The translations under genes were made by a program, and so were the position numbers. Positions 46,936-55,987 of a stretch of 60,233 nucleotides of DNA are shown one piece after another. Under the pieces are notes generated by a model. The model ran no database searches, had not been told where the DNA came from, and saw nothing but the letters and a program-made list of their open reading frames with translations. Source of the stretch: Alloascoidea hylecoeti (Eukaryota); NCBI GenBank assembly GCA_001600815.1, contig BCKZ01000002.1, forward strand, positions 682,001-742,233, given 5' to 3'. Every line of letters starts with the position of its first letter. Within the stretch, counting starts at the first letter, position 1.

Positions 46936-48614
46936 ATGTCTACTCTTGATAAATCTCTTGATGAAATTATTGCTGCTAAGCCAAGAAAGGCCAGTTTTCG
47001 CCGTAAGGCTATTGTCAAAGGTGGCGTAAAAAAGCCCACTACAAAATCTAAGGCGACCAAACCAGCTGCTCCTAAGCATGCTCCTACTGCCCCATTCAGC
47101 TCTTCTTATTCATCAGATAAAGTCATCATATCGAACTTGGTATGTATTTGTTACCTTTTTGGGCGTTATTTTGTCGAGTCATGTTACTAACTTTTACATA
47201 GCCTCTCGATATTGATCAACAAGCAATCAAGGTACGTTGAAGCGCAACATGCGATTCAAAACCTGACAGAGTATCAGGTTCATTTCAAGATCCAACAAAA
47301 GATATGCTTTGAATGTTCATAAACATTTTCAAAAAAAAGCGTTCAACTGAAAATGATAAAACATGCGATTATGCTTTTTTTTTTTTTTTCCCCTCTTAGT
47401 GGAATGGAATACAGTGGAATTGTTCTGTTTGACTTGGACCCATTGTTTTCGAACACCGACTAATGCTTGATTGTGAATTGATATTTACTATCACCTATAT
47501 TTCTCTGAGATGTGTTTAATCTATTATGTCTATTGTCTAAAATTATTGAGGTTATTTTAAGGTGCTGTCAATAAATTACGGTTGGCGTTCGTTTGTTATT
47601 TAATTTGGCGTTGGTGATTATGTGTCGTTGATTTATTGCCATTTTTGTTGTTGGGGGAAACTTACGTCATATTGACAGAGACAAAGAATAACATAGATTG
47701 AACTCATTGAATTAGGGTGAGCTGAACATGAAAGTGATTTTCATGAGCTGGCTTTCAAGAATTGTTTAAAAATCTTGCGGTTGGGTTAACTACTTCGTTA
47801 AGCAAAGTACAGTTGTTAAATAACAAGAACAAAAGGGTCAGTTCCCATTGTTGGGCAAAAGTTATAACGACTAATGGAAATGCGGAAGTGTTAACTGGGT
47901 AGAAGGAGGAGCTTTCATGCTGTATTTTGTTCCACTCTTTTTATTGCGAATGACTTCAATGGATGTGAGAGTCTTAATTTTCAACTATCCCTGATACCTT
48001 TGCCTTTATTTCAAACTTATTTACAACCGAATTGCAAAATCGCTGGATCTGATATCTTTTTTACTTTGCTCAACTTAATTCAGAACTAGAATTTAATATT
48101 TTTTTAATAGGAATATTTTCAAGCCTGGGTCGGTCCAATTGCTAAGCTCAACTTGAGTTACAACTCTAAGGGTAAATCAACAGGTGTTTGTAGTGTTATT
48201 TTCAGGAATAAGTTAGATGCTACTAAAGCCGTTCAAAACTACAATGGTGTTGATATTGATAACGGTAAAAACAAGTTAAAGGTAAGTTAAGTTCAACAGA
48301 TATATTTAAGTGATCGTTTTGTTAACGATATATAGGTTGAACTTGTTGTTGATCCAAGCAAGAAGCCGTTAGCAGCAAGACTCTCCCCAAAAGAGCAAAA
48401 GTGAGTATTTTATACAAAATCAATTCATCATTCGAGATAATAAATCTAACATAAATTATTACTATAAAGGAAGGAAGTTAGTAAAGGTCCAAGACCAGCG
48501 GTTAAGAAGCCAGCTACTAAAAAGAAGGATGCCCCAAAGAAAAAGGCAAGACGTCCAAAAAAGACTGTTGAAGAGCTTGATGCTGAAATGAATGATTATT
48601 TTGAAACTAAATAA
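46936..48614 (+). CDS. YRA1: mRNA export adaptor Yra1 (ALY/REF); join(46936..47139,47202..47231,48111..48281,48336..48400,48470..48614)
   Basis: N-box MSTLDKSLDEII, RRM (KVIISNLPLDIDQQAIKEYF...YNSKGKSTG) and C-box KTVEELDAEMNDYF. Four introns keep the frame. Confidence 0.92.
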
Positions 48615-48809
48615 GTTTGTTAAGTTAATCAAGTGATAACTTTGCCTTTTTGTATTATATTTTACCTTCTGAAATTTAAGAAAGATGGATCCTTATATTA
48701 TTAAATATATTAAGTGAAATAAGATGTTTTATTTATGTAAATGAAGACTACGTCAGTCTATAGATTTGTAGATGTAATCTAGATCTAGAGTTATTAACGG
48801 TTGACTAAG

Positions 48810-49416
48810 TTATTTGAAAAACCCAGTTGAAAATCGATCACCTTGTTTTCTCGACTAGGCAAAATTTATGGTGTTAAATGGTTTGGACTTAATATTGAAC
48901 GAATATGTAGATATCTTACCATATAACTTGTTCCTGTTCCTTCATATTCACTCTTTCGACTCGCTGATATCTCTGGATTCGGAGCTGGGAAGCCAGGTTT
49001 AATAAATGCCGAATTACTGTAATCCTCATTGTATGGTTGGTCTTCATCCTCATCTATAACTTACTGTTAGCATTGTACAGGGGGTCTCTGAATGGTTGAT
49101 TATTATTCTCTAGAGAAATCAGAACATACAAGCTGATCCAACTGGATTGAATTTTTGAATTTTTCTTTGATTAATTATCCTTTATATTATCTTTGCATTA
49201 GTTGACACCATCAACTAAAATGATATGAAAATAATATGCAATAATATAACATACGTTTTGGCAATGATGAATGTTGTTGCTCCGATAGCACTAGATACTC
49301 CAAGAATAGTCCTATGAGGAAAAATTAGTCATGGATGCTTAGAAATTAAATAGACCCTATCAAAACACTTACCAGAACTTTTTTGTAGACTTCAAGAAGT
49401 TCATAGATGTCGACAT
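48810..49416 (-). CDS. Small uncharacterised single-TM protein, 109 aa; join(49373..49416,49255..49311,49130..49179,48920..49053,48810..48854)
   Basis: Four introns (GTAAGT, GTATGT, GTATGT, GTAAGA donors; TAG/AAG acceptors) give a 330-nt stop-free CDS, MSTSMNFLKSTKKFWTILGVSSAIGATTFIIAK...RKSEYEGTGTSYMSRKQGDRFSTGFFK. Confidence 0.75.
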
Positions 49417-49658
49417 TTTGGAAGTAATTGAACTTTTTTAACGGTAGCAGTGTTGCTGAAAATAAATGAGGTGATGAGATTGGTGATCCTTTGGCGTATA
49501 ATTCATACTGATAGAGTAACAATCAGAAATATTCTCCACCACACATAAGTTTAATACATCAAGCAATTTCTAATTAATTTGAATGAAAATTCTTTGGATA
49601 TAGCCCTCTGGGCGTCACTGGCTAGAAAAATACATTCCAAAGAAACACAAAAAATTGA

Positions 49659-49739
49659 CGACACCAGCAGGACTCGAACCTGCGCGGGAAATCCCAAAAG
49701 ATTTCTAATCTTTCGCCTTAACCGCTCGGCCATAGTGCC
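49659..49739 (-). tRNA. tRNA-Ser(AGA)
   Basis: Cloverleaf GGCACTA...TGGTGTC-G, anticodon arm AAAGA-TT-AGA-AA-TCTTT, long variable arm, GGTTCGAGTCC, and an oligo-T terminator just downstream. Confidence 0.97.
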
Positions 49740-49791
49740 CAATTTGTTGCTCTTCAAAAGCGTCTTTACTAGATGTCATGTAAGCTTGGAT

Positions 49792-51020
49792 CAAAATTCA
49801 GGGACACCACAAGAAGGGAAGAAAGAAGAGTGTCAAGAATACACAAAAATAAGAATAGAAAAAGAGGTTTTTATTTCACTATATATAGTAGAGAGTTCCT
49901 CAGAATTTACATAGTTTCTAGTTATATAATTTAATTGGAAAATATATGAAAAGTTAAAAAAAAAACCACAAATGAAGCGTTACAAAAACTGGTGGAAAAC
50001 CCAACAGGAGAAGATATCGAAAAAAGAATAAAAGACATGGAAGAAGAAAACATATCCAAATACTCGATTAAATCAATAAGTCAAAAGTGGTATAATAAAA
50101 ACAAAATTATATTGAAACCAAACAAATGGATGCAGTTAATTCCAAAACTAAAAGATGAAAATTGGAAGATATGGTGGGGATTTATCAAAGAAACATATAA
50201 GGAACACCCTGAAGAGACACAATGGATACATTTACTCAGCTTGGGATATGTTACTCATGCTACATCATAATAAAAATGCAAAACAATGGAGGCAAAAATC
50301 TGATATTTGTAGTTTATGTCAACAAGGTAAAAACGACATATTATTTGAAGATTGCTCAACAATAAGAGTACTAAAGAAGATGATGTTAGGAAGAGAAAGA
50401 ATTGGGATCAAATTATTGATCATAAATACAAAAGAAAACAATATAGAAAAAAATGGGGCTTTTATCAAAAAGGCTCTAGAGCTAAGAAATATAAAACTAT
50501 CGGATCCAAATACCATAATGGAAGGACAAATGGGAAAATACTTAAGACCCAACAAATCCAGAATTAATCAAAGATTTAGGGATTTGGAGAGTGAGGAATT
50601 ATCAAATAATTCAATAATAAAAAATAATAAAAAATTTTATGAGAGTGAAAGCATAATACTAAAACCGAATTATTAGTTGACAAAATCTCCGGATCTAAAG
50701 GATAATTGGAAACAGTGGTGGAATCAAATAAAAAAGAGCTTACAAAAGAGATCCAGAAGAAACACAATGGGTCCATCTTTTCAGCTTAAGTTATGTGAAA
50801 CATATGTTACATGCCAACAAAAATGCGAAAGAATGGTGGCACAAATCAGATATTTGTAGTCTTTGTCAAAATGGGAAAGGTGATATTAATCATATTTTTG
50901 AAGAGTGTAATACAGTGAAAATTCTAAAAAAGAAAATACTAGAAACAATTGATATCAAAAATCTGATAATAGATGGAAAAAATATAAAAAAGAAAGGCCT
51001 CTTCATCACAACGTATCCGT
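49792..51020 (+). mobile_element. Stacked truncated L1-like non-LTR retrotransposon ORF2 3' fragments
   Basis: A 3' stub ending in poly(A) at 49956..49965, then two diverged copies of a C-terminal region with a CCHC finger (CSLCQNGKGDINHIFEEC; degenerate CSLCQQGKNDILFEDC), frameshifted. Confidence 0.7.
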
Positions 51021-52190
51021 GAAACTCCAATGTCAAATAATAGTACCTCACACAGAAAATCGACAAACCTTCAAGACCGATTCATAACATTCAACATAAA
51101 ACCAAAAGGGTAAAAGTGGTTAGTAATGTAAAATAAAAGGAAACTCCCATTTTGAACAATGGCAATAAAAACGACCGTAGTAGTGAATTACTAAATAAAA
51201 TAACTGCCGTTACTCCAAAGGATCCCAAATCTCAAAATACCTTTACTGTGTTAGTACATGATATGGTTAGAAACCAATTCAAAAACAAAAATACAGTTAC
51301 AAGTAATGGATCATCTAATACTTTACCAAACGAGGCTTTGCATAAGGTCAGAACCCTAACTACCTCGCAAAATCTATGGTCAAATGATCTGGAAACAGAA
51401 GAGGATCCCCCAAATTTAAACACTCAGATTTCAATTGAATAATCATTTGAAACAGCACCCAGCCTGTTCCAATTCACAGTCGCTTCTAAATCAGACGATG
51501 TAGTGGAGGGTACAACAAATTAAAAATCTTATCATGTCTGAAACAACAAATTTAAAATATGAACTTATCAATATACGCACAAAAAATATAACATCAATGA
51601 TTGAGGAATCTCGTAGAGATGCAATCATCAACTAATATATTTTCAATCATAAAATAAATATCAATTTTTTACAGGAGACACGTATTGCCAAACACGTTAT
51701 CCCAGATCTTAAAGAAAGGTTATCATTTTCTAATATTCATTCTTATTTAGATCATGAGTGCTTAGCTTCAATATTTATTAAAGAAAGTAATCACATTTCT
51801 ATTCTACCAACGCAATATTCAATTAGACAGTTTTCTCCACTCCTTGCAGCGCGTATTATGGATGCAGCTGCCAAAATGGGTAATATTCGAATTCGGTTGA
51901 TAAATATGCACCAGTTCAATATAAGGAAAGAATAAACTTATTCACGAAGATTATAAATTAGATTCGGTTCCACCCAAAATAGTGTATGATCCATCCATAC
52001 CTTCTTTGAAAGCACTCTTAGATACTTATGGATTAAGAGATGTTTATCGAACAAACAATATAACCAGCATACAAGTCACAAACAAAGTACCATTGGTAGC
52101 GTATGCAGACGTTTAGATAGATTTTATGATAGTTATTCACTTTATCAAAATGCAATAAGGATGAAATTCACTGACTATCAGTTTTCAACT
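51020..52190 (+). mobile_element. Non-LTR retrotransposon fragment: possible ORF1 tail plus disrupted APE endonuclease
   Basis: From ATG 51534: INIRTKNITS...INFLQET (stop at 51633), then YGLRDVYR and RRLDRFY (52107..), in the motif order of L1-type AP endonucleases. Confidence 0.7.
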
Positions 52191-52978
52191 CTTTTTTTTT
52201 TTTTTTTTACTTTTTTATAGATTTTTATAATTTATAATAAAATGATAAAGTTAAAACGTAAGTACAGAACCTTGACGGTACAACAATGTCTATTTTGTAT
52301 TTATTTATATCTAAGAATCAGTTTCCATCGTTCAATATTTACTAAATGAACAATAGCATCTGAGTCTATTTTGAGAGTTCACATGAGTTGAATCTTCTGT
52401 TTACTCGCATCTGCCATAAAATCTCTGAAATTAGGCTTAGCTCATAAAGGAGTTATTTTTTTTTTTCAAGTGGCCATTAAGGCTCTATATTAAACTGCTT
52501 TTTCTATAAATACTATATTTATAACAACCAAAAAATTGTGAAAATAAAAAGACCTATTGCTAGGCAAAAATACCTATTACTAATGTTATAGGTTCACTCT
52601 TTTTTGAGTAATGTTGTTACATTTTATAGTATTATTGCCACCATTTCCAACTTCTTACAATCAATACGAATAAAGGATGTAATATTTATACATCTTTGCT
52701 CTTTTTCTTTTTTTGTCCATAGCACCTAAGTGATTCAGAACAAAGCTTTGTGGAGTCCCTTTCAATCATTTTACACCATTGTGATACTGATAAACTATTC
52801 TCCTGTTGTTAATATCTTCTGTGATATTCTCTAACCAAGAAAACGGTTACTGCCCTTTATTAATTCTTTTCTTTCCTTATGATTAAAATCAAGAAAAGAT
52901 TTCACTTCAATTTCCTTTTTGGTTATAGGACCATATTTTCTTCATAATTTCACATGTAGAGATAACATAAAAAATTGA

Positions 52979-53059
52979 CGACACCAGCAGGACTCGAACC
53001 TGCGCGGGAAATCCCAAAAGATTTCTAATCTTTCGCCTTAACCGCTCGGCCATAGTGCC
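52979..53059 (-). tRNA. tRNA-Ser(AGA), second identical copy
   Basis: Sequence identical to 49659..49739, with its own oligo-T terminator. Confidence 0.97.
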
Positions 53060-53117
53060 TAATTTGCTATTTTCTTTTCTAGAAAGTCTTTTTATTAGAT
53101 GTCACGTAAGTTTGGAT

Positions 53118-53580
53118 TTCACTATATGAAAAGTTAAAAAAAAAAACTGGTACCAAAACTGACAAATGAAGCGTTACAAAAACTGGTGGAAAACCCAGCA
53201 GGAGAAGATATCGAAAAAAGAATAAAAGACATGAAAGAAAAAAACATATCCAAATACTCGATTAAATCAATAAGTCAAAAGTGGTATAATAAAAACAAAA
53301 TTATATTGAAACCAAACAAATGGATGCAGTTAATTCCAGAACTAAAAGATGAAAATTGGAAGATATGGTGGGGATTTATCAAATAAACATATAAGGAACA
53401 CCCTGAAGAGACACAATGGATACATTTACTCAGCTTGGGATACGTTACTCATATGCTACATCCTAACAAAAATGCAAAAAAATGGAGGCAAAAATCTGAT
53501 ACTTGTAGCATATGAGTAACATATCCCTAGTTATATAATTTAATTGAAAAATATATATGAAAAGTTAAAAAAAAAGAAAA
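53118..53580 (+). mobile_element. Truncated L1-like fragment with 3' UTR and poly(A)
   Basis: 53162..53508 is near-identical to 49968..50312. It ends in CTAGTTATATAATTTAATTG..ATATGAAAAGTT(A)n, the same tail as at 49918..49965. Confidence 0.7.
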
Positions 53581-53591
53581 ATTCAAGCAAA

Positions 53592-53853
53592 GTCGTGCAT
53601 ACTGATTAGCAACCACTCTTAATCGTTCTAGCGGCCTAGGTTCGATTCTGGTACGCGACAAAAGATTTGGGAATTAGCACATACAAATAAAGACTATTAG
53701 ACGTTTGTCATCTTGGCTGAGAAGCTATCACTAGAGTGCTTGCGGTGAAAAAATCTGGGGGTTTTTAGTGGGTACAGCGCGGGGGTCCTGGGTTTATCCA
53801 GAAGGGTTGAATCTCCACACTGTCGTCTTACTAGTGCAAGACTTCGAAAAAAA
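53592..53853 (+). other. Degenerate tRNA-like head with GC-rich body and A-run (SINE or tRNA-pseudogene candidate)
   Basis: GTCGTG..CGCGAC-A acceptor-like pairing (53592..53660) and B-box GGTTCGATTC at 53639. No proper D or anticodon arm. Confidence 0.35.
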
Positions 53854-54061
53854 CAAGGACGCGATTAAATGCAATATTATCTATAGTACCTCCTTAACAA
53901 AAGACAGACTAGATATTTTTATCGTAATAATGACAAGATTTGCATAAACAATGGTATCAGCGAAATAAAATATGTTAAATGAGTAATTCCAGTACCGAGC
54001 AGGTAAACACCATCACTAACCAACCATCAAGTTTTGTTTACTGCCATAATAAAAATATATA

Positions 54062-55987
54062 ATGGACAATTTAGTTGATACAGGGCTTCTTGATGCGACT
54101 TATGAACTTTCTGAACATCTTGACCATGAAATCAGAAATATACCCATCAACTATAATCCTCTTTCTGAAGAATTAGAAGGAGCTGTTATCCGTGTTATAG
54201 TAGACAGATGGGTTTCAAACTCTTCTCTTCAAAACCATCCTCAGCTTCATTTAATAGTGGAACTTTCAGCAAAAAACTTACTATACCAATACTCAAAAGA
54301 TCTTAAAGATGATCGAAATACACAAATCACTCTTATTACGATCTTGTTAGATGTGATGGCATTTATAGCTTCACAAGGACTGGCTGAAACATCTCTCCCC
54401 CATTTATTAATTGAAGAATTATTTGATGTGCAAGTCATTAGCTGGTGTCAAACTTTCTGGAGTTATTTAGAATCTCGTGTATCGACATTGGCATCCAATA
54501 TAATAGGAACTAGGGCTCCAGGAACAGTATTAATTCGACTCTGTAATGCTCTACTGCGAAGGCTTTCAAAGAGTCGTGATGCTGTTTTTGGTGGTAAGAT
54601 TTTAATCTTTTTAGCAAATGCTTTTCCTCTAAGTGAAAAATCCGGTTTAAATATCAGAGCTGAATTCAACGTTGAAAATAAAGCAATTTTGGAAGATGAT
54701 ACAGAATCAACTGAAACCAAAAACTTAACATCTGAAGAAAAAGAACAAAAAAAAATATATCAAGCTTTTTGGTCACTACAATCATTATATAGAGATCCAG
54801 TTAGTATTTTCGGTTCAGATGAGTTATTACAACAATTAAAAGAGAAAATGACTTTAGTTATTGAAACTATAACAAATGCTGAAAAAAGTATTGCTGTTCA
54901 AAATAATAAATTACATTCTATAAATTCTTCAACTGACCAAAATAGAAATGAAAAAGAATCAAAAGAGGATGAAGAATCAACTGGTGAAAATATAATAAAT
55001 GATGTTCGATTAACTTCAAGTAAACTTTTCGATTTACAACTTAAAGATAGAACGTTTAGAAGAGTTTTTCTCTGTCAAACATTAATAATTGTCGAATTCT
55101 TTCTAAGTCTTACAAAAGAAAGAAGGGAAGCTGTCGAAAAATTACTCCCACCAAAGAAAACTCATAAATGGTCATTTATACTCCCAGAAGATGATAAAAA
55201 GTTCTTTGAAAAAATAAAATATAAACTTGGAAAACACTCACCAATTGATACAGATGCTCCATTTGCACGAACTTTATCAACAATAATTCAACGTGATGAA
55301 AATTGGCAAAACTGGAAATTGAAGCAATGTCCATCTTTTGAGTTAGGATGTCTTCCATCTTCTGAATACACAACTGCGAAGGCCAAACTAGAAACATTCA
55401 AACAGTCAAAGAGACCCTTTTGGATTAAGATGGGATCAACACCTCTCTCAAAGGTATGGAAAAAAGAACATGGGCTTGAGTTGCTCGTTACTCCGTTTCA
55501 ACCAAAAACAGCAGCTCAATATAACGATGAAATTATAAAATTAGAAGAAAAACTGAAAAATGATGATATTAGTTCCGATGATAAGGTAAAGTACGAAAAT
55601 TTAATTTCATTAAATACATGGAGAGGATTACGAAGTTATAGAACGGAAAACTGGATGGAATTTGGAAACTTTACTCGTAAAACAGGTCTTAAAGGTTTAT
55701 TCAATCCAGAATTAGCTATAGCAGAGAGGAAAGTTGCTCGAGCTGCATCCCCTACCGAAACCCAACAAGCTTCAAGTGATAGTAATAATAATGGTAATCT
55801 CAATGAAAATGAAAAACCATTGCCATCTAGTCCACCTAAAGAATTGAAATCTGAGCCAAATCAATTAGATAATTCCAATGGGGAATATACTAATTCTGCA
55901 GACTCTAACGAAACACCATTAAAAAGAAAGCTTAGTAGCGGAGAAGCAAATGAACTCAAAAGATTACGACCTTCGATCAGTGATTAA
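54062..55987 (+). CDS. HPR1: THO complex subunit Hpr1/THOC1
   Basis: LIEELFD...CQTFWSYLESR, LIRLCNALLRRLSK..DAVFGGKILIFLANAFPLSEKSGLN.RAEFNVEN, LFDLQLKD.TFRR, RDENWQNWK. Confidence 0.9.
   Translation: MDNLVDTGLLDATYELSEHLDHEIRNIPINYNPLSEELEGAVIRVIVDRWVSNSSLQNHPQLHLIVELSAKNLLYQYSKDLKDDRNTQITLITILLDVMAFIASQGLAETSLPHLLIEELFDVQVISWCQTFWSYLESRVSTLASNIIGTRAPGTVLIRLCNALLRRLSKSRDAVFGGKILIFLANAFPLSEKSGLNIRAEFNVENKAILEDDTESTETKNLTSEEKEQKKIYQAFWSLQSLYRDPVSIFGSDELLQQLKEKMTLVIETITNAEKSIAVQNNKLHSINSSTDQNRNEKESKEDEESTGENIINDVRLTSSKLFDLQLKDRTFRRVFLCQTLIIVEFFLSLTKERREAVEKLLPPKKTHKWSFILPEDDKKFFEKIKYKLGKHSPIDTDAPFARTLSTIIQRDENWQNWKLKQCPSFELGCLPSSEYTTAKAKLETFKQSKRPFWIKMGSTPLSKVWKKEHGLELLVTPFQPKTAAQYNDEIIKLEEKLKNDDISSDDKVKYENLISLNTWRGLRSYRTENWMEFGNFTRKTGLKGLFNPELAIAERKVARAASPTETQQASSDSNNNGNLNENEKPLPSSPPKELKSEPNQLDNSNGEYTNSADSNETPLKRKLSSGEANELKRLRPSISD

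Follow-up and report, generated by a model that had tools for sequence, protein, structure and literature searches.

Zorro3, an L1-clade element of Candida albicans, is poly(A)-tailed and integrates into poly(A) tracts, with A-runs on both sides (PMC1965478 and PMC7175516, in their accessible parts). The likeness to the locus described here is one of integration habit: the gap between an earlier poly(A) and the next fragment is 0-3 nt, with at least five other loci alike. No sequence relation was detected in searches whose longest protein measured 159 aa. The differences are that no association with tRNA genes appears for Zorro3 in the accessible text of PMC1965478, and that a new Zorro3 insertion is often of full length, in contrast to the family here, which consists almost entirely of short tails. 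Ylli, an L1-clade element of Yarrowia lipolytica, has left 104 fragments, between 30 bp and 1 kb in length, and resembles the present family in its many very short, 5'-shortened, poly(A)-ended copies and in target duplications that are hard to find (accessible parts of PMC5014426). Ylli differs in having kept 10-17 full-length copies. Casaregola and co-workers (2002) reportedly describe no tRNA preference for it.

The closest geometry is found in amoebae, where the APE-type LINEs TRE5 of Dictyostelium discoideum and NLTR-B of Polysphondylium pallidum lie 40-54 bp and 39-64 bp, respectively, upstream of the tRNA coding sequence, TRE5 in opposite transcriptional orientation to the tRNA (PMC5911963 and PMC5006619, accessible sections). 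In the present material all 3/3 junctions (52, 58 and 59-62 bp) are likewise opposite in orientation to the tRNA gene. The systems differ in the host, an amoeba versus a fungus here, and in the evidence for the preference, which for TRE5 consists of hundreds of copies as well as experiments, among them an interaction of ORF1 with TFIIIB according to the accessible text, and here of two independent junctions; the stacking of copies on the family's own tails goes without mention in the accessible sections of both papers. The build-up of retroelement debris in a compact yeast genome, on the upstream side of Pol III genes, is shared with Ty1, Ty3 and other yeast LTR elements (PMC7175516 and PMC5911963, in part), which have LTRs and an integrase, whereas here there are poly(A) ends, no LTRs and truncation anchored at the 3' end. 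Sources from 2016 and 2018 name tRNA genes, in their accessible portions, as safe landing sites for yeast LTR elements and amoeba LINEs and not for a fungal LINE, and a search of the literature outside subscription journals found no description of a tRNA-associated non-LTR element in budding yeast.

Features of the tRNA-bearing region

The window, the whole analysed stretch of 60,233 nucleotides from Alloascoidea hylecoeti, contains two tRNA-Ser(AGA) genes identical at 81/81 positions in a pairwise alignment, each faced head-to-head by plus-strand material of a candidate LINE family (Table 1). In the block of copy 1 (block 1) this material begins at 49792, 52 bp from the tRNA 5' end, and in that of copy 2 (block 2) at 53118, at a distance of 58 bp; in block 1 a match to other genomic copies becomes certain only at 49811, 71 bp from the tRNA. 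Rfam revealed no further RNA genes in 48500-54500 (E<=1). A tRNA-like stretch at 53583-53659 was called by ARAGORN only at the 80% threshold and was treated as unproven, since that threshold with introns allowed gives 113 calls across the window. A THO1 protein is a neighbour of the region.

Table 1. Coordinates of the features described, in window positions
Feature	Position	Strand	Basis
tRNA-Ser(AGA), copy 1	49659-49739	-	ARAGORN; Rfam tRNA 56.3 bits (gathering score 29)
5' flank of tRNA copy 1, 52 bp, ending TTGGAT, homologous to the copy 2 flank	49740-49791		
T1, shortened LINE 3'UTR tail, ending ATATGAAAAGTT(A)10	49792-49966	+	repeats, contig depth
A1, ORF2 C-terminal fragment, family A	49967 to ~50540	+	tblastn to P0003-P0010, 48-87% identity
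B, diverged ORF2 C-terminal fragment	~50545-51022	+	tblastn; stop codon 51020-51022
Near-single-copy LINE 5' part	51023-52130	+	contig depth
ORF without assignment, within the LINE 5' part	51137-51439	+	
Endonuclease-like pieces (stop, frameshift, middle motifs missing)	51504-52113	+	
M2, repeat ending (A)17, seen as T17 at 52192-52208	52192-52455	-	contig depth ~10-20 times unique
M1, repeat from a different family, whose (A)11 end appears as T11 at 52456-52466	52456-52950	-	depth 7-72 times unique
tRNA-Ser(AGA), copy 2	52979-53059	-	ARAGORN; Rfam
5' flank of tRNA copy 2, 58 bp	53060-53117		
T2, 24-29 nt tail remnant + (A)11	53118-53146	+	repeat search, sequence
A2, ORF2 C-terminal fragment, 96.6% identical to A1	53147-53514	+	tblastn, alignment
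18-nt inverted filler, then T3 (last ~49 nt of tail + (A)9)	53515-53575	+	

The 3' end of the family is ATATGAAAAGTT(A)n, with 3 occurrences against 0 expected. The motif ATATGAAAAGTTAAAAAA occurs three times on the plus strand (49944, 53124 and 53555) compared with a mean of 0.00 in 100 shuffles, and the A-runs after the tails lie at 49956-49965 (A10), 53136-53146 (A11) and 53567-53575 (A9). Loose contig ends at 49811 carry the upstream 3'UTR of the family. T2 reads as T1 with two internal deletions, and would be a deletion derivative because its 'TTCAC' matches an internal piece of T1. T3 is the 3' end of an internally deleted A2 copy; contigs place the joint from 50312 to 49918 at single-copy depth. 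The founding tail of block 1 has no preceding A tract, nor is the tRNA flank obviously a poly(A) target. No target-site duplications were recognisable around the nested, rearranged copies in the window.

A1, which carries a CCHC-type zinc-knuckle region and a frameshift near 50257, begins 1-3 nt past the poly(A) of T1, and A2 begins directly after T2's poly(A). A1 and A2 are identical at 337/349 positions. Fragment B, 69% identical to A1 at the nucleotide level over 251 nt, is without a preceding poly(A), unlike A1 and A2. The starts of all three ORF2 fragments fall within ~40 nt of one point in ORF2, a coincidence unexplained by random 5' truncation. A possible alternative to separate insertions is that A1 to B, together with the end of P0009, represents a tandem unit of ~560 bp; the likeness of the proteins at the unit border is suggestive, and the DNA alignment there is no better than shuffles. 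Overall, the structure foreseen in the original prediction was recovered: LINE debris about 50-60 bp from both tRNA-Ser(AGA) 5' ends, a tail and A-run three times (from 49956, 53136 and 53567), and three ORF2 C-terminal copies, two of which (A1 and A2) start close behind an earlier poly(A), at 0-3 nt where the prediction gave within about 16 bp.

The deduced products of the 5' part contain motifs that presumably resemble those of the L1 endonuclease. No Pfam or PDB sequence match was obtained for this endonuclease-like part. Exo_endo_phos was the Atlas lead for 51636-51932 (score 0.94, 160 shared features), with 28/30 hits belonging to clusters that carry this family on 12-15% of their members. 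The zf-RVT profile scored 23.3 bits on B (E 1.1e-4) and 20.3 bits on the relative P0004 (E 9.3e-4), both under the cut-off of 27.5, and a profile search of the zinc knuckle against PDB sequences returned nothing relevant. No reverse-transcriptase stretch lies within the window. The poly(A) ends, the truncation gradient described below, the sub-threshold zf-RVT matches and the Exo_endo_phos lead together point to a LINE; its assignment as 'L1-like' is moderately supported by sequence, all domain matches being sub-threshold.

Copy gradient and stacking on poly(A) tails

Copy number was approximated in four sequencing runs by summed contig depth relative to unique flank, a rough measure only. Tail bins reached 117-270 times unique depth (about 150-300 times as a round figure for the tail; 2621.7 versus 8.08 at position 49895 in run X1), which compares with 11-35 times for the family A ORF2 C-terminus, 5-13 times for family B and ~1-3 times for the 5'/endonuclease part. 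The gradient of 3'-anchored, 5'-shortened copies was present in 4/4 runs, and the genome holds ~300 tails. Contigs further revealed at least five other loci at which a tail poly(A) is followed by another shortened copy with 0-15 nt between. The joints from the tail poly(A) (49962-49965) lead to 50883, 50978, 49923, 49851 and, inverted, 50221. Every joint lies within a single contig of roughly unique depth and recurs in 2-4 of the 4 runs; the loose contig ends found before 49851 are rich in A. That the family habitually stacks on its own tails across the genome is well supported. The 20-nt tail motif was also present at 80 or more metagenome loci; since likeness among the matches listed is limited to 22-53 nt around the motif, these are attributed to chance in unrelated metagenomes.

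An exhaustive HMMER search of 1.84 billion representative proteins with the ORF2 C-terminal query returned eight fragment ORFs of 38-159 aa (P0003-P0010) and no long protein at E<=0.001, and the upstream piece of ORF2 had no match among longer proteins. A search among proteins of similar length added three short fragments with starts inside the LINE. The family appears to be dead in this genome, based on the finding that no intact ORF2 copy was recovered.

Junctions upstream of tRNA genes

One of the protein relatives, P0005, lies on another contig and provides a second tRNA junction: its LINE fragment has another truncation point and, after 59-62 nt, runs into a different tRNA, which lies on the opposite strand. 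The LINE match covers residues 96/97-158 (tblastn), and the degenerate reverse complement of residues 45-76 fits one B box with an A box 55 nt before it; a T-run follows 5 nt after the tRNA discriminator base. Of the 81 positions of tRNA-Ser(AGA), at least 32 are incompatible with this tRNA. ARAGORN called an opposite-strand tRNA in 4/4000 random back-translations of P0005 (10 with introns allowed) versus 0/4000 shuffled peptides. Among the 11 fragment ORFs, P0005 alone extends past the LINE, in a sample that is biased because ORFs through G+C-rich tRNA DNA are likelier to stay open. A protein search with the ORF that spans tRNA and tail found only two tRNA-Ser read-through ORFs, both from other organisms.

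The tRNA-Ser loci share the TTGGAT flank end, the order of tail, poly(A) and ORF2 fragment, and fragment 5' ends within ~16 nt of each other. From these shared features we infer one insertion history, and the two loci are most likely a single founding event that was later duplicated. Two junctions, independent of each other, underlie the preference for tRNA genes: that of the tRNA-Ser founding event, from a window chosen for exactly the tRNA-LINE pattern, and that of P0005. Together they make it somewhat probable that the family prefers tRNA upstream regions in head-to-head orientation. The prediction that the family targets its own tails is well supported by the further stacked loci, which lie outside the window, whereas repeated targeting of Pol III upstream regions holds in part: the window pair is best read as one duplicated insertion, and the independent P0005 junction favours the claim. 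Likewise, the possibility raised at the outset that tRNA-adjacent copies trace to one duplicated insertion applies to the window pair, with P0005 independent of it.

Three other explanations bear on the junctions. A LINE without tRNA preference, entering intergenic A/T tracts in the manner of Zorro3 or Ylli, could have left copies that survive beside tRNA genes where insertions are tolerated; the window pair would be one duplicated event, as the junction and composite order common to both tRNA-Ser loci allow, and P0005 a coincidence favoured by ORF-calling bias. Such an element would fit the poly(A) stacking, the A-rich loose ends and the presence of other repeat families in the region, as in a passive nest, and has precedents in Zorro3, which targets poly(A) without tRNA association (PMC1965478 and PMC7175516, in part), and in Ylli, which leaves more than 100 short fragments (PMC5014426, in part). 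We consider it somewhat unlikely in view of two independent head-to-head junctions at 52-62 bp from two tRNA species, of the confinement of LINE material in the 60-kb window to a single tRNA-bearing region, and of a chance of ~1e-4 to 1e-3 that a random 5' junction falls in a 20-bp oriented window, a figure that assumes a genome of ~12 Mb carrying tRNA genes by the few hundred. Alternatively, the tRNA might belong to the mobile element itself, either as its SINE head or through a template-switch chimeric retrocopy, rather than being the target gene. L1-type enzymes make chimeric retrocopies with small RNAs, and the tRNA-Ser bin has a contig depth of 4-10 times unique. That depth is, however, ordinary for the yeast tRNA-Ser(AGA) gene family; moreover, tRNA and LINE are on opposite strands, 52-62 bp of non-LINE DNA lies between them, and the tRNA is full length with its own T-run terminator, all of which makes this explanation very improbable.

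Duplication of the tRNA-Ser locus has to be weighed against independent hits on two old paralogous tRNA-Ser genes, at each of which near-identical source copies would have supplied a second insertion into the poly(A). The 5' flanks, identical at 42/52 positions with 6 gap columns from a 6-nt indel (24/27 in the distal 27 nt), are far more diverged than the LINE fragments A1 and A2 (Fisher p 1.1e-4), the first-layer tails measure 175 nt in block 1 versus 24-29 nt in block 2, the second-layer fragments A1 and A2 begin 13-16 nt apart in ORF2, and other genomic copies extend past the second-layer start point (loose contig ends at 49968), all as independent hits would allow. Against them stands the requirement for four events that agree in their order and almost agree in their truncation point, as well as the match of 'TTCAC' in T2, which suggests a deletion derivative; independent hits are accordingly regarded as distinctly unlikely. 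One-step duplication does not predict uneven divergence and so needs either fast mutation beside an active tRNA gene or later gene conversion. Mutation beside active tRNA genes is raised 7- to 10-fold in other eukaryotes according to the accessible part of PMC6130373, and the uneven divergence can be accounted for by such rapid change within the inner 5' flank.

The preferred reading of the whole is that the stretch is a graveyard of 5'-shortened, mutated copies of an otherwise undescribed yeast non-LTR (LINE) family. New copies repeatedly sit directly on the poly(A) of older ones, the outcome expected of target-primed reverse transcription with an endonuclease and a primer that favour A/T tracts, in the way described for Zorro3. 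The founding, unstacked copies would have entered ~52-62 bp upstream of tRNA genes in opposite orientation, and guidance by Pol III factors on the tRNA gene is suggested by a geometry that is that of TRE5 and NLTR-B. The tRNA-Ser founding unit (tRNA, flank, tail, poly(A) and ORF2 fragment) would then have been duplicated 3.3 kb away, and the duplicated blocks reshaped by deletions and further insertions. This combination of graveyard, own-tail stacking, founding copies upstream of tRNA genes and a duplicated tRNA-Ser locus is modestly favoured as the best explanation. More tentatively, a budding-yeast LINE may have evolved, independently of TRE5 and NLTR-B, a Pol III-guided head-to-head entry ~55 bp upstream of tRNA genes and then built stacks on its own poly(A). 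If true, a yeast LINE with the geometry of TRE5 would be a further case of convergent evolution and would make it possible to compare the ways in which one and the same Pol III complex is read by integrase-based and by target-primed elements, in a lineage open, perhaps, to yeast genetics. The value is tempered by a family that looks extinct in this genome and by a tRNA preference of two junctions.

Minus-strand repeats

The repeat M1 has the orientation of tRNA copy 2 and is located downstream of it, with an uncertain 5' limit at 52857-52950, and nine contigs with unlike flanks start at its poly(A) end (52456). The minus-strand poly(A) repeats downstream of this tRNA gene could be a matching TRE3-like partner. 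If so, both tRNA-flank niches would be filled by non-LTR elements, where other yeasts use LTR elements. M2 begins right after the poly(A) of M1, and its last ~35 nt resemble the family-A tail with a score of 35 versus 22.1 +/- 3.2 for shuffles, a value reached by 1/300.

Layout of LINE fragments beside the tRNA-Ser(AGA) genes

The window is A+T-rich (G+C 28-38%) with densely packed genes, and contains exactly two tRNA genes as called by ARAGORN and Rfam, both tRNA-Ser(AGA) on the minus strand and identical at 81/81 positions. LINE sequence, sought by BLAST of 49740-53600 and by tblastn with all LINE-like peptides, was located at 49792-52130 and 53118-53575 only, all on the plus strand, in the single region that carries both tRNA genes. 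The results confirm the original prediction that LINE material starts about 50-60 bp from each gene, with three copies of the tail (T1-T3) and three ORF2 C-terminal fragments (A1, A2 and the diverged B). The tail motif, the conserved 3' end preceding the poly(A), was observed three times versus 0.00 expected, and 49000-54200 contains five homopolymer runs of A or T (≥8 nt), each of them the end of a repeat.

Features of the tRNA-Ser(AGA) region of the window
Feature	Position	Strand	Remarks
tRNA-Ser(AGA) copy 1	49659-49739	-	ARAGORN, Rfam
Block 1			tRNA, 52-bp flank, T1, A1 (ORF2 C-terminal fragment)
T1, tail fragment	49792-49966	+	ends A10
B, second C-terminal fragment, diverged	after A1	+	69% identical; stop codon 51020-51022
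5' part with endonuclease-like pieces	after B, to about 52130	+	near-unique
Two further repeats	52192-52950	-	poly(A) ends A17 and A11
tRNA-Ser(AGA) copy 2	52979-53059	-	ARAGORN, Rfam
Block 2			tRNA, 58-bp flank, T2, A2, 18-nt inverted filler, T3
T2, tail remnant	block 2	+	24-29 nt, A11
T3	block 2, after filler	+	last 49 nt or so of tail, A9

The starts of A1, A2 and B all fall within about 40 nt of one ORF2 point, for which a tandem unit may be responsible, or else a microhomology hot spot at which a poly(A) target meets A-rich LINE sequence. The internal-deletion junction of A2 holds 18 nt copied in inverted form from ORF2 sequence close by, a trace expected of template switching or of a hairpin. 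A 27-nt inverted repeat (53434-53460/53504-53530) is 93% complementary.

A tRNA-like stretch at 53583-53659 (+), starting 8 bp past the T3 poly(A), contains a B-box-like GGTTCGATTCT and an acceptor stem pairing 6/7. It was called tRNA-Lys(CTT) by ARAGORN at the 80% threshold only, a setting that yields many false calls, had no Rfam match, and may be a decayed tRNA gene. The product of the neighboring gene at 54062-55987 (+) is homologous to THO complex subunit 1 (efThoc1, E 4.1e-99) and, like another window protein, is a singleton at 90% identity in a 15-billion-protein collection.

Origin of the tRNA junctions

Blocks 1 and 2 are homologous from 15 nt past the tRNA 3' end through 50318/53514. 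In both, the flank closes with TTGGAT and is followed in turn by tail, poly(A) and fragment; the start points of A1 and A2 are 13-16 nt apart, and T2 reads as T1 minus two deletions, with a retained TTCAC matching an internal T1 piece. These features favor one founding arrangement at the tRNA-Ser genes that was probably duplicated afterwards, and make it rather unlikely that the two genes were hit independently. The 5' flanks count against simple duplication since the copies (42/52 identical plus a 6-nt indel) are more diverged than the LINE fragment, which is 337/349 identical (Fisher p 1.1e-4). For the 27 distal flank positions (24/27) the difference from the LINE fragment is not significant (p 0.08), and the ~25 nt nearest the tRNA 5' ends (49740-49764 vs 53060-53090) are far more diverged than the outer neutral LINE DNA. 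The portion consulted of a study of other eukaryotes gives the mutation rate of inner flanking DNA at active tRNA genes as 7- to 10-fold above average (PMC6130373); fast mutation beside active tRNA genes could thus explain the uneven flank divergence, leaving duplication the favored origin of the window pair.

A further junction was found in P0005, a 159-aa fragment ORF from a 3915-nt contig, in which the LINE match extends from residue 96/97 on and begins in the zinc-knuckle region, a truncation point unlike that of A1 and A2. In the degenerate reverse complement of the upstream part exactly one place fits a B box, an A box fits 55 nt ahead of it, and a T-run fits 5 nt past the discriminator position. 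ARAGORN called an opposite-strand tRNA in 4/4000 random back-translations of P0005 (10/4000 with introns allowed) and in 0/4000 of the shuffled-peptide controls. The predicted tRNA, whose anticodon is not fixed, has its 5' end at nt 226 of the ORF, 59-62 nt from the LINE and head-to-head, and at least 32 of 81 positions are incompatible with the window tRNA-Ser. Chance placement of the junction at such a distance is very unlikely. P0005 alone of the 11 fragment ORFs retrieved reads past the LINE, so the sample is small and biased to open, G+C-rich flanks. The proposal that the family targets sites upstream of tRNA genes lost one of its two window loci, which shared junction and order reduce to one event, but regained support from this independent locus, and such targeting is marginally probable.

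Copy gradient and stacking across sequencing runs

Four sequencing runs contain the locus, three under one organism label (two sharing a sample) and one a wood-decay metagenome, and their contigs were placed on 49300-52950 at 80% likeness. The summed contig depth relative to unique flank, a rough gradient and not a copy number, was 117-270 times in the tail bins, 11-35 times in the ORF2 of family A (A1), 5-13 times in B and about 1-3 times in the 5' part. At position 49895, a G in the window but a T in almost every other copy, depth in run X1 was 2621.7 vs 8.08 in the unique flank. The poly(A) at 49962-49965 was found joined to 50883 (15 nt between), 50978, 49923, 49851 (11 nt between) and, inverted, 50221, in single contigs at about unique depth; an A-rich consensus precedes four or five contigs starting at 49851. 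These joints and starts support genome-wide the suggested targeting of own tails, indicating that stacking on them is a family-level property, a behavior already known.

The sole 5'/endonuclease-like LINE part in the window (51137-52113) occurs close to once: for 51326-51493 a single additional copy, diverged in sequence, was recovered in 4/4 runs, on a contig of 2661 nt (603 nt in run X3). The wood-decay metagenome contains 0.70 of the sampled words of 48800-54200, and its contigs fit that stretch in a similar way to contigs from runs of the organism itself, which hints at the habitat of the yeast.

Affiliation and known systems

The poly(A) on a conserved 3' sequence and the steep copy gradient anchored 3' favor a LINE. 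Sub-threshold matches to zf-RVT (E 1.1e-4 and 9.3e-4) and an Atlas lead from 51636-51932 to Exo_endo_phos fragments also count in favor. On the other side, the endonuclease part had no match among Pfam and PDB sequences, and the window showed no RT. When the 174-aa C-terminal piece was run exhaustively with HMMER against 1.84 billion representative proteins, 8 matches only were returned (38-159 aa, 50-92% identical, each a one-contig singleton), and a word-based search for relatives of greater length returned none. Thus, in the collections searched, neither an intact ORF2 of the family nor a close relative with a name is detectable; the label L1-like is reasonable but provisional.

In the sections consulted of PMC5911963 and PMC5006619, TRE5 is oriented opposite to the tRNA gene and located 40-54 bp upstream of it, NLTR-B is found upstream at 39-64 bp, and TRE3 shares the orientation of the gene and is found 40-150 bp downstream; a table of Pol III-gene targeters in the 2018 review has non-LTR elements from dictyostelids only and, for yeast, LTR elements only. 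Zorro3 integrates into poly(A) tracts (extracts of PMC1965478 and PMC7175516) and was not associated with tRNA genes (PMC1965478). No tRNA-associated LINE in budding yeast was found in the literature searched. The likeness of the family to TRE5 is one of geometry and that to Zorro3 one of tail-stacking on poly(A). The minus-strand repeats at 52192-52950 (depth about 7-72 times unique) lie downstream of the second tRNA-Ser gene in the same orientation, a TRE3-like geometry. The A17 unit begins directly after the poly(A) of the A11 unit in a tail-to-head stack, and its final ~35 nt are similar to the LINE family tail.
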